DNA from: an uncultured Verrucomicrobiae bacterium
Lineage (GTDB): Bacteria; Chlamydiota; Chlamydiia; Chlamydiales; Rhabdochlamydiaceae
Assembly: GCA_963731265.1 (NCBI GenBank)
Contig: CAVSUE010000001.1
Coordinates: 576,001-640,000, forward strand
Direction: 5' to 3'
Length of the DNA stretch: 64,000 nt
In this document: positions 62,559-63,379 of the stretch, in pieces
How positions within the stretch are numbered: the stretch's first letter is position 1
How the letters are laid out: each line of letters starts with the position of its first letter
Made by a program: the position numbers and the translations under genes
Notes under the pieces: generated by a model
Databases searched by the model: none
Seen by the model: only the letters and a program-made list of their open reading frames with translations
What the model was told of the DNA's origin: nothing

Positions 62559-63172
62559 AAGCACTGATTATCGTCGATATGCAAAACGATTTCATGCCAG
62601 GAGGCGCGCTGGGCGTTCCTAGAGCCCATGAAATCATCCCTCTCATTAATACGCTGATTCCCAAATTTTCTTTGGTCGTCGCTACTCAAGATTGGCATCC
62701 GACCGATCATGTCAGTTTTGCCGCCAACCATTTAGGCAAAAAAGTGGGAGAAATCGTGAAAACAGGGGATATCGATCAAATATTGTGGCCGGTCCATTGC
62801 GTCCGCAGTACACACGGAGCTGAGTTGGCCTCATCGCTCGATAAAGAGAATTTCGCCAGCTTTTTTTACAAAGGAACCGACAAGAACATCGACAGCTACA
62901 GCGCCTTTTTTGACAACGCCCGCCGCAAGTCGACAGGCCTCGGCGATTACCTGAAAAGCCGCGGCGTCAATGACGTCTACGTGGCCGGTGTCGCCACCGA
63001 TTATTGCGTCCTCTTTACTTCCCTGGACGCCGTTGACCTCGGTTTCAATGTCTACGTCATCGCCGATGCCTGCCGTGCCATTAACCTCGACCCGCGCGAC
63101 GAGCAGCGCGCCCTGGCCGCCATGGCAGCCAGAGGGGCTCAGATTGTCTACACGAACAACCTGTTGAACTAA
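62555..63172 (+). CDS. pncA: Nicotinamidase/pyrazinamidase
   Basis: [34 protein letters not shown]. Confidence 0.95.
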
Positions 63173-63192
63173 ACTTCTGCAAAGTTTATGAT
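63164..63192 (+). promoter_or_regulatory. Sigma70-type promoter for the leader-proB transcript
   Basis: TTGAAC (63164-69), 17 nt, TATGAT (63187-92). Predicted +1 at about 63199-63200. Confidence 0.6.
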
Positions 63193-63199
63193 TAATTGC

Positions 63200-63280
63200 A
63201 TGAAGAAAGCTATGTTTGCAGCACTTCCACGTTCGACCATTCAGGCGCCGCCTCCCCCCCGTTTCCCCCTTCAGGGGTAA
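63200..63280 (+). CDS. Putative proline-rich leader peptide MKKAMFAALPRSTIQAPPPPRFPLQG
   Basis: 26-codon ORF (alternative in-frame ATGs at 63188 and 63212) with 6 Pro codons, four consecutive (CCG CCT CCC CCC), ending 99 nt before proB. Confidence 0.6.
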   Translation: MKKAMFAALPRSTIQAPPPPRFPLQG

Positions 63281-63379
63281 TCACTTTTCTTATTAGTTCG
63301 TCCTTTTTGTCATTCTAAATTTTTAGAATCTATTACGCGATTATTTCGCATTTTCTAAGTGTATTTATTGGGCTTAACG

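Follow-up and report, generated by a model that had tools for sequence, protein, structure and literature searches.

The classical leader-peptide transcription attenuators of amino-acid operons are trpL, hisL, leuL, thrL, pheL and ilvL. Proline synthesis is known in Escherichia coli mainly for feedback inhibition and in Bacillus for T-boxes; the leaders of Bacillus proBA and proI are T-boxes, which bind uncharged transfer RNA (tRNA) directly and do without an open reading frame (ORF). Here we describe a short ORF with a run of proline codons upstream of proB, the gene for glutamate 5-kinase, in a 64,000-nucleotide stretch of DNA (the window) from an uncultured member of the Rhabdochlamydiaceae. 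An initial annotation of the window had proposed this ORF as a candidate proline-sensing leader peptide controlling proB, and our comparative analysis of sequences supports that reading. The ORF, its Pro codons, a hairpin at its end and its link to proB are conserved, with a signature of coding constraint. The element is probably a sensor of Pro-tRNA supply for proBA that acts through ribosome stalling, and most likely it would turn proBA up when proline runs short.

Like the classical attenuators, of which hisL is listed in Table 2 of PMC12360218, the window leader is a short ORF before a biosynthetic operon and carries a codon run for the operon's own end product. Its codons are placed so that a stalled ribosome would alter the leader RNA, and the adjacent hairpin could be a pause signal. 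Unlike them, it concerns proline, proBA and the Chlamydiota, and no conserved terminator/antiterminator pair is detectable. Two further differences are that the last regulatory codon and the last sense codon together form a hairpin adjoining the stop codon, and that part of the family is predicted to be leaderless.

Consecutive Pro codons in a leader ORF are shared with mgtP (three codons) and mgtL (four codons) of Salmonella, where downstream transcription rises when charged tRNA-Pro falls; the Pro codons of mgtP confer, and are required for, induction by proline limitation (PMC3641672, in the sections covered here). The mgtA leader acts through Rho (PMC12360218, Table 2). These elements control Mg2+ transport and virulence genes within long, multi-signal leaders, whereas proB and proA lie downstream here. 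We found no sequence relation between them and the window leader and no matching Rfam family: with a limit of E 10, the window leader matched nothing in Rfam but noise, and 12 leader-bearing loci gave none at the gathering score and no T-box. The Bacillus T-boxes serve the same pathway and respond to the same signal, tRNA-Pro charging, but differ from the window leader in that it has an ORF and, like the 12 related loci, lacks a T-box match.

The attenuators tnaC, speFL and cruR have a short ORF at whose end, or close to it, a stalled ribosome keeps a Rho loading site covered; in cruR this site lies inside the upstream ORF itself (PMC12360218, in the sections covered). Shielding of this kind is, by analogy, the output that we favour for the proB leader. 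In those systems, it is a small ligand, or the lack of one, that arrests the ribosome at the stop codon through the nascent chain; at the proB leader, hungry Pro codons would be the cause of stalling, and a role for Rho is our proposal. Within the same phylum, tryptophan-dependent attenuation involving the repressor YtgR has been described for trpRBA of Chlamydia trachomatis (bioRxiv 10.1101/2020.05.03.075317, in the part covered). This is likewise attenuation-type control of amino-acid genes, but of another amino acid and other genes, and that part of the source describes no Pro-codon leader for trpRBA. A full-text literature search, with subscription journals largely outside its scope, found no Pro-codon leader of proBA, in agreement with the initial annotation, which knew of none. 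The parts covered of PMC2965389, of PMC4833913 and of PMC8632094 with one supplementary file contain no mention of such a leader.

Conservation of the leader upstream of proB

We searched for ProB in 41 relatives and in a 401-genome sample of the phylum (400 scored), in which 68 genomes were proB-bearing at E <= 1e-20. The 450 nt upstream of each proB were read and candidate ORFs were located by rule. Of these 68 genomes, 24 have a short ORF before proB in which 2-5 Pro codons stand side by side towards the end. Three further genomes of the window's own family (f1), namely G010, G013 and G023 from the search of the 41 relatives, also carry the leader, which brings the number of leaders to 27. 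The initial annotation had offered a conserved Pro-run ORF at orthologous loci as the test of its own reading, and such an ORF was found.

Leaders were detected in 15 of the 17 proB-bearing genomes of family f1, in both of those in f5 and in the only one in f29. They occur in one of two in f16, one of two in f32 and four of 15 in f22. None were detected in f19 (12 proB-bearing genomes), f25, which includes Waddlia (5), f28 (3), f21 (3) or the other families (6). The 27 leader ORFs have 15-30 codons and end 59-209 nt before proB. The typical form, found in an AT-rich majority, has 24 codons and ends with five Pro, Phe, any residue, Gly and stop; the leaders of the window and its nearest relatives end with four Pro, Arg, Phe or Ser, Pro, Leu, any residue, Gly and stop. 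In all leaders the distance from the last Pro codon to the stop is 1-3 sense codons, and the closing hairpin, of the form CCC(C)-loop-GGG(G), is made of the last Pro codon and the last sense codon.

A run of four Pro codons in a short frame means little by itself. Dozens of short stop-to-stop frames with such a run occur in the window's genome (G000; 2.34 Mb in 2 contigs, 46% GC), so the observation in a single genome is not significant and the significance of the leader comes from its conservation only. Many short frames full of Pro runs were observed in one region of this genome (G000:C1, ~613500-619300), which holds two long ORFs of 1019 and 825 amino acids (window 37158-40217, plus strand, and 41192-43669, minus strand). 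Both are probably genes whose repeats are either proline-rich or strongly C- or G-rich.

A covariance model (R1) of 70 nt around the end of the leader ORF had one match with E < 0.01 in G000 (2.4e-4), the next best being at 0.27. Exactly one match per genome was obtained in 17 of 101 family genomes; 16 of the 17 matches lie directly upstream of proB, including those in two genomes new to the analysis, G414 and G427. The leader is a single-copy element in each genome and is tied to proB. We also looked in metagenome contigs for the exact pattern of four Pro codons, Phe, any residue, Gly and stop. At least 119 stretches matched it, and a proB-like start followed in four of 80 loci examined (L122, L159, L163 and L184). 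These matches were set aside as additional support, as they are mostly chance matches in 241 million records and added little.

Coding constraint and RNA structure of the leader

Codon variation was compared in 11 leaders of 24 codons that could be aligned. Within the Pro run, codon positions 1 and 2 are nearly invariant (0-0.18 differences per site) and position 3 is variable (0.47-0.67), which is the synonymous variation for which the initial annotation had proposed to test. A three-base period of this kind would not be expected if only C-richness or RNA structure were maintained. The leaders make use of all four Pro codons (CCC 52, CCT 42, CCA 12, CCG 12). The alignment (A1) has three gaps within the ORF, of 3, 6 and 9 nt, all multiples of three, and the ungapped 30 nt past the stop differ at 0.57 per site compared with 0.23-0.40 inside the ORF. 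N-terminal codons show no clear third-position bias, suggesting that the Pro codons and the reading frame are selected rather than a particular peptide. Scans of three leader peptides against Pfam and NCBIfam matched no family.

Start signals are of two kinds. In seven of the 27 leaders, including that of the window, the distance from the end of a -10 box to the ATG is 5-7 nt, while at least 13 others carry a Shine-Dalgarno (SD)-like GGTGGT, GGTGAT or GGAG 5-10 nt before the start (by eye). The leaderless geometry claimed for the window is indeed predicted there from the position of the -10 box, with 7 nt between the end of TATGAT and the leader ATG, but it holds only for these seven leaders and most others have an SD-like sequence. 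The sigma-70-like promoter of the initial annotation is present at its place, though as a match alone it is not above chance (2 sites in the region compared with 1.1 +/- 1.2 in shuffled sequences). Together, the periodicity of the Pro run, the gaps, the divergence past the stop and the start signals make four lines which argue that the leader ORF is translated. 

Two further features were observed near the start. A second in-frame ATG, from which the ORF list counts the frame, lies at 63188, inside the -10 box and 12 nt upstream of 63200, and would add four residues; 63200 is the likely start, because only its context, and not that of 63188, recurs in the closest relative, G002. In G005, G010 and G170 (L021, L007 and L028), AGGAC and GTCCT, separated by 4 nt, make up a conserved inverted repeat that closely precedes the SD-like GGTGGT and stands ~30-45 nt ahead of the leader ATG. 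It may serve as part of the promoter, as an operator or as an upstream terminator.

The closing hairpin, H1, is present in every leader, and 88.9% of its cells pair. In the window, it consists of the last Pro codon, the fifth (63266-63268), as its 5' arm and the terminal Gly codon, and it adjoins the stop codon. The initial annotation had seen this hairpin with a 2-nt loop, which is sterically impossible; we redrew it with a 4-nt loop, UUCA. Its inner pair is C-G in 12 leaders, U-A in six, U-G in six and another combination in three, and its covariation score was reached by just three of 500 shuffles. The last Pro codon is CCC in 26 of 27 leaders. Five of the 11 aligned leaders have GGT as the Gly codon, and in four of these a G at the end of the codon before it keeps the GGG run. 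H1 is also kept in leaders with a displaced stop, which falls one codon further on in G011 and G405 and within the loop in G146 and G151, and this persistence points to selection on H1 as RNA. The hairpin is weak, with a stem of 3-5 pairs and dG of -3.2 to -6.4 for the cases in a lenient terminator scan. In nearly all leaders, a U-rich run with 4-8 U follows 2-10 nt after it, at just 2-4 nt in G014, G170 and G151 and mostly at 4-10 nt elsewhere.

Two more hairpins recur in the spacer between the leader and proB. Hairpin E5, with a conserved UCUA...UAGA core behind a U run, was seen in 13 leaders of a comparison of 21 and also in G011, 14 in all. It starts 23 to 36 nt past the stop (at +31 in G011), which puts it beyond the reach of a terminating ribosome. 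The pair flanking its core is mostly U-A, with A-U in G013 and G232, C-G in G130 and U-G in G260 and G372 (by eye), and the spacing of its half-sites varies from 0 to 8 nt. Hairpin E7 (UUAAUUUC...GAAAUUAA) lies further downstream in the AT-rich clade and has a U-A to C-G exchange in G014 (by eye). In G039, G144 and G146, with spacers of 59-70 nt, 14-24% C and 8-11% G, a search for spacer hairpins showed none. The spacers of G260 and G372 (L034 and L039) are expanded to 186-209 nt by structured inserts with dG of -13 to -16 and U-rich tails; these inserts have no counterpart in other leaders.

The initial annotation had called the window spacer U/C-rich and G-poor; its length of 99 nt was right, but the spacer as a whole is AT-rich, with 16% C and 13% G. 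An excess of C over G (skew of -0.29 to -0.37) spans 63200-63349, the ORF together with the proximal part of the spacer. Leader ORFs have on average 29% C and 14% G, and the 78 nt ending 20 nt past the stop have a C/G ratio of 1.9-5.2 in all 27 leaders. Folding of the window leader is not better than that of shuffled sequences (z -0.58).

Some genomes keep only parts of the arrangement. G426 (71% complete; L108, C5:373235-376304, minus strand) keeps the leader ORF, E5 and E7, but downstream of its R1 match a perfect inverted repeat with long arms (~35 nt) takes the place of proB; no ProB-like start was found within 1.5 kb. The arrangement could reflect an insertion, or a loss of proBA that left the leader orphaned. 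The two members of the window's own family with proB but without a leader ORF are G214 (L032) and G230 (L027). G214 retains the downstream TTAGAAC and a TTAATTGCAATTAA-type hairpin region, as if the ORF part alone had been deleted.

Proposed output and alternative explanations

We infer the response to proline, the direction of regulation and the output step as follows. The leader ORF would be translated, and when charged tRNA-Pro is scarce, the ribosome would stall on the Pro codon run; the link to proBA, the Pro codons and the mgtP precedent are the reasons for proposing this. A stalled ribosome would cover the C-rich 3' part of the leader ORF, the stop codon and the first bases of the spacer and would melt the CCCC/GGGG hairpin H1. 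Stalling would give more proBA expression, smooth translation and release less. H1 and the U-rich stretch may act as a pause site for RNA polymerase, synchronising transcription with translation.

If the sensor is real, we tentatively favour Rho-dependent termination as its output. The naked leader ORF would then be the loading site for Rho and the stalled ribosome would shield it. This reading appears the most coherent because rho is present in G000 (TIGR00767, 706.7 bits compared with a cut-off of 509.45), because tnaC, speFL and cruR offer precedents, and because the two states would still differ in one respect, ribosome cover of the C-rich leader ORF in one and its exposure in the other. 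The reading also works for lineages whose spacer showed no hairpin (G039, G144 and G146). Given the sensor, a classical terminator/antiterminator switch would be an unlikely output, and control of translation or of mRNA stability a quite improbable one. A more specific version of Rho control is possible if doubtful: the Pro codons may do double duty, the codons sensing tRNA-Pro and their C tract loading Rho, with no RNA switch and, in part of the family, with a leader mRNA whose first base is the A of the leader ATG. A ribosome parked on the Pro run would hide both the Rho site and the adjacent hairpin, and a released ribosome would expose both.

Several results weigh against the sensor or its favoured output. 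The leader is absent from 44 of the 68 proB-bearing genomes, including two of the 17 in the window's own family, and the f22 lineages carry just 2-4 Pro codons, two adjacent or scattered. All 24 R1 matches among the 68 genomes are the model's own training loci, and R1 therefore adds no count of its own there. The choice of Pro codons in the leader is like that of the background, and we rejected rare-codon tuning on this ground. A search of sequencing runs listed none of RNA that contains this stretch. No switch was detected either. A standard scan of the window leader found 0 canonical intrinsic terminators, and RNAalifold on 12 full leaders gave no consensus beyond H1 and a 5' A-U stem, the hairpins downstream of H1 being misaligned by indels in that alignment. 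Minimum-energy folds constrained for a free leader, a stalled ribosome and a terminating ribosome, which covered 23 of 26 leaders, showed no consistent switch among these states; the only ribosome-sensitive conserved structure is H1. Finally, spacers show no bias of C over G (mean 14.5% C and 12.8% G), which leaves only the leader ORF itself as a place for the Rho site, and the C-richness of that ORF is a trivial consequence of its Pro codons.

Three candidate pairings were considered and rejected. Pairing of the C tract of the Pro run with the SD of proB amounts to 3-4 bp at most and is not conserved (by eye). An 8-bp pairing in G000 between the leader-stop region and codons 4-7 of proB is not conserved either and was attributed to chance in AT-rich sequence. 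Pairing of the GGGG with a downstream CCCU and U run is found in two genomes only (G144 and G256) and has the wrong regulatory sign.

The same Pro-codon sensor might instead work as a classical attenuator, with alternative pairings that form an intrinsic terminator or an antiterminator according to the position of the ribosome. Hairpins with U-rich tails do occur 30-60 nt before proB, weak in G000, G002 and G011 (dG -3.6 to -5.9) and strong in the expanded spacers of G260 and G372, and the spacer holds the conserved hairpins E5 and E7, with compensatory changes in E5. As an account of the element this is distinctly unlikely, however. Besides the empty standard scan, a lenient scan across leaders gave only weak or non-conserved candidates, conserved neither in position nor in sequence, and three lineages showed no spacer hairpin in the search for them. 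Folding predictions give E5 and E7 in all three states, without a ribosome, with a stalled one and with one at the stop; E5 lies outside the reach of a terminating ribosome, and no conserved partner was found for the freed GGGG arm. One could also suppose that H1 and the following U run are themselves the terminator, whose formation a stalled ribosome blocks. The U run soon after H1 in nearly all leaders, its closeness in G014, G170 and G151, and the unavoidable overlap between the 5' arm of H1 and a ribosome that sits on the last Pro codons are consistent with this. We consider it scarcely probable, because a stem of so few pairs and a U run mostly 4-10 nt away fit a hairpin-stabilised pause better. 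By inferred footprint geometry, moreover, a closely following ribosome would be on the Pro run while the polymerase is on the U run, starved or not, and a terminating ribosome would reach the stop only after the polymerase had moved on; H1 and the U run alone could then not tell a stalled from a moving ribosome.

Other explanations drop the response to proline. Runs of four or five Pro are strong EF-P-dependent stall motifs, and the translated ORF could report EF-P activity, translation capacity or nascent-chain arrest, or supply a trans-acting peptide. Two efp-like genes are present in G000, the run is followed by conserved residues (Phe or Val, any residue, Gly, stop), and relatives share some N-terminal similarity. 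But the exclusive link to proB points to proline, the lack of clear third-position bias in the N-terminal codons suggests a weakly constrained peptide, and f22 leaders can have two adjacent Pro codons only. The terminal Gly is better explained at the RNA level, by the GGG run kept in four of the five GGT cases and by the persistence of H1 where the stop is elsewhere (G011, G146, G151 and G405), and we regard a signal other than proline as very unlikely. Finally, the conserved entity could be an RNA or DNA signal, such as a hairpin that binds a protein or an operator (H1 or the palindrome TTCTA...TAGAA), with an incidental reading frame. In its favour, H1 and the GGG run are kept at the nucleotide level even where the stop shifts, the core of E5 is conserved and palindromic, and G214 retains the downstream hairpins without the ORF. 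The three-base periodicity of the Pro run, the restriction of ORF gaps to multiples of three and the conserved start codon, correctly spaced from a promoter or SD, make an incidental frame most improbable, and half-sites whose spacing varies by up to 8 nt are unsuited to a dimeric DNA-binding protein.

Locus context and significance

The coordinates of the locus are collected in Table 1. Reading of the sequence confirmed all elements of the 26-codon ORF as initially annotated, as well as proB downstream of it.

Table 1. Features around the proB leader, in coordinates of the window
Feature	Position	Strand	Basis or remark
pncB-like gene	61077-62558		precedes pncA-like gene; NAPRTase domains (Pfam)
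pncA-like nicotinamidase, isochorismatase-family	62555..63172	+	Pfam PF00857, E 9.9e-31; ORF list
Sigma-70-like promoter candidate: TTGAAC (63164-63169), 17 nt, TATGAT (63187-63192)	63164..63192	+	9/12 matches
Leader peptide ORF, 26 codons and TAA (63278-63280)	63200..63280	+	encodes MKKAMFAALPRSTIQAPPPPRFPLQG
Four consecutive Pro codons CCG CCT CCC CCC, proposed sensing codons	63248..63259	+	sequence
Hairpin H1: CCCC, loop UUCA, GGGG; C63266-69 pairs with G63274-77	63266..63277	+	27/27 leaders
AT-rich spacer, leader stop to proB, 99 nt, U-rich at start	63281..63379	+	composition, alignments
Hairpin E5: ATTCTAA, loop ATTT, TTAGAAT; ~30 nt past leader stop	63312..63329	+	
Small hairpin: GCGA, loop UUAUU, UCGC, then AUUUUCU	63337..63356	+	lenient scan, dG -3.7
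proB (glutamate 5-kinase), ATG at 63380	63380..64000, beyond window end	+	Pfam AA_kinase, E 7.4e-38

The last codons of the pncA-like gene overlap the -35 box, and its stop codon falls within the promoter spacer. The small hairpin nearest to proB is weakly terminator-like and conserved in the closest relatives only. The full proB encodes 247 amino acids and its stop overlaps the start of proA (410 amino acids), while proC is located elsewhere in the genome. The tRNA-Pro genes of G000 have the anticodons CGG (two genes), UGG and GGG. The two tRNA-Pro(CGG) genes lie ~1 kb apart (G000:C1:647533-647609 and 648496-648573), 7.5-8.6 kb past the window end and a few kb downstream of proBA, with the UGG and GGG genes elsewhere. 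G000 also has five matches to TLC nucleotide transporters, four of them above 300 bits; none were found in 14 control genomes. G080, placed in the same order by the genome search, has a second contig of 15,593 bases whose first 3 kb are 100% identical to the plasmid of Waddlia chondrophila WSU 86-1044. The window accordingly comes from a member of the chlamydial order, as the initial annotation had assumed. The Pfam domain of chlamydial OmcB, tried as a phylum marker, gave no match, but none in the control either, and is uninformative here. A search for related loci in named genomes gave one near-identical fragment of a metagenome-assembled genome and one unrelated genome.

The proB leader probably represents a known kind of leader-peptide sensor, for an amino acid and a phylum without a described case in the literature searched. 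Its architecture appears unusual: the regulatory codons merge into a hairpin beside the stop codon, a terminator switch is not evident, and some members are predicted to be leaderless. Proline synthesis has been a gap in leader-peptide attenuation, which is otherwise a textbook mechanism. The leader would also offer a natural and compact proline-tRNA sensor for reporter design. If Rho is the output and no RNA switch is involved, this would be a simpler way to build an amino-acid attenuator. If the Pro codons also serve as the Rho site, the leader would represent a minimal amino-acid attenuator built on Rho, with no earlier example for proline biosynthesis, and environmental chlamydiae would have their first defined family of leader-peptide attenuators. 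For these intracellular bacteria, the leader provides a testable handle on how they sense the amino-acid supply of their hosts.

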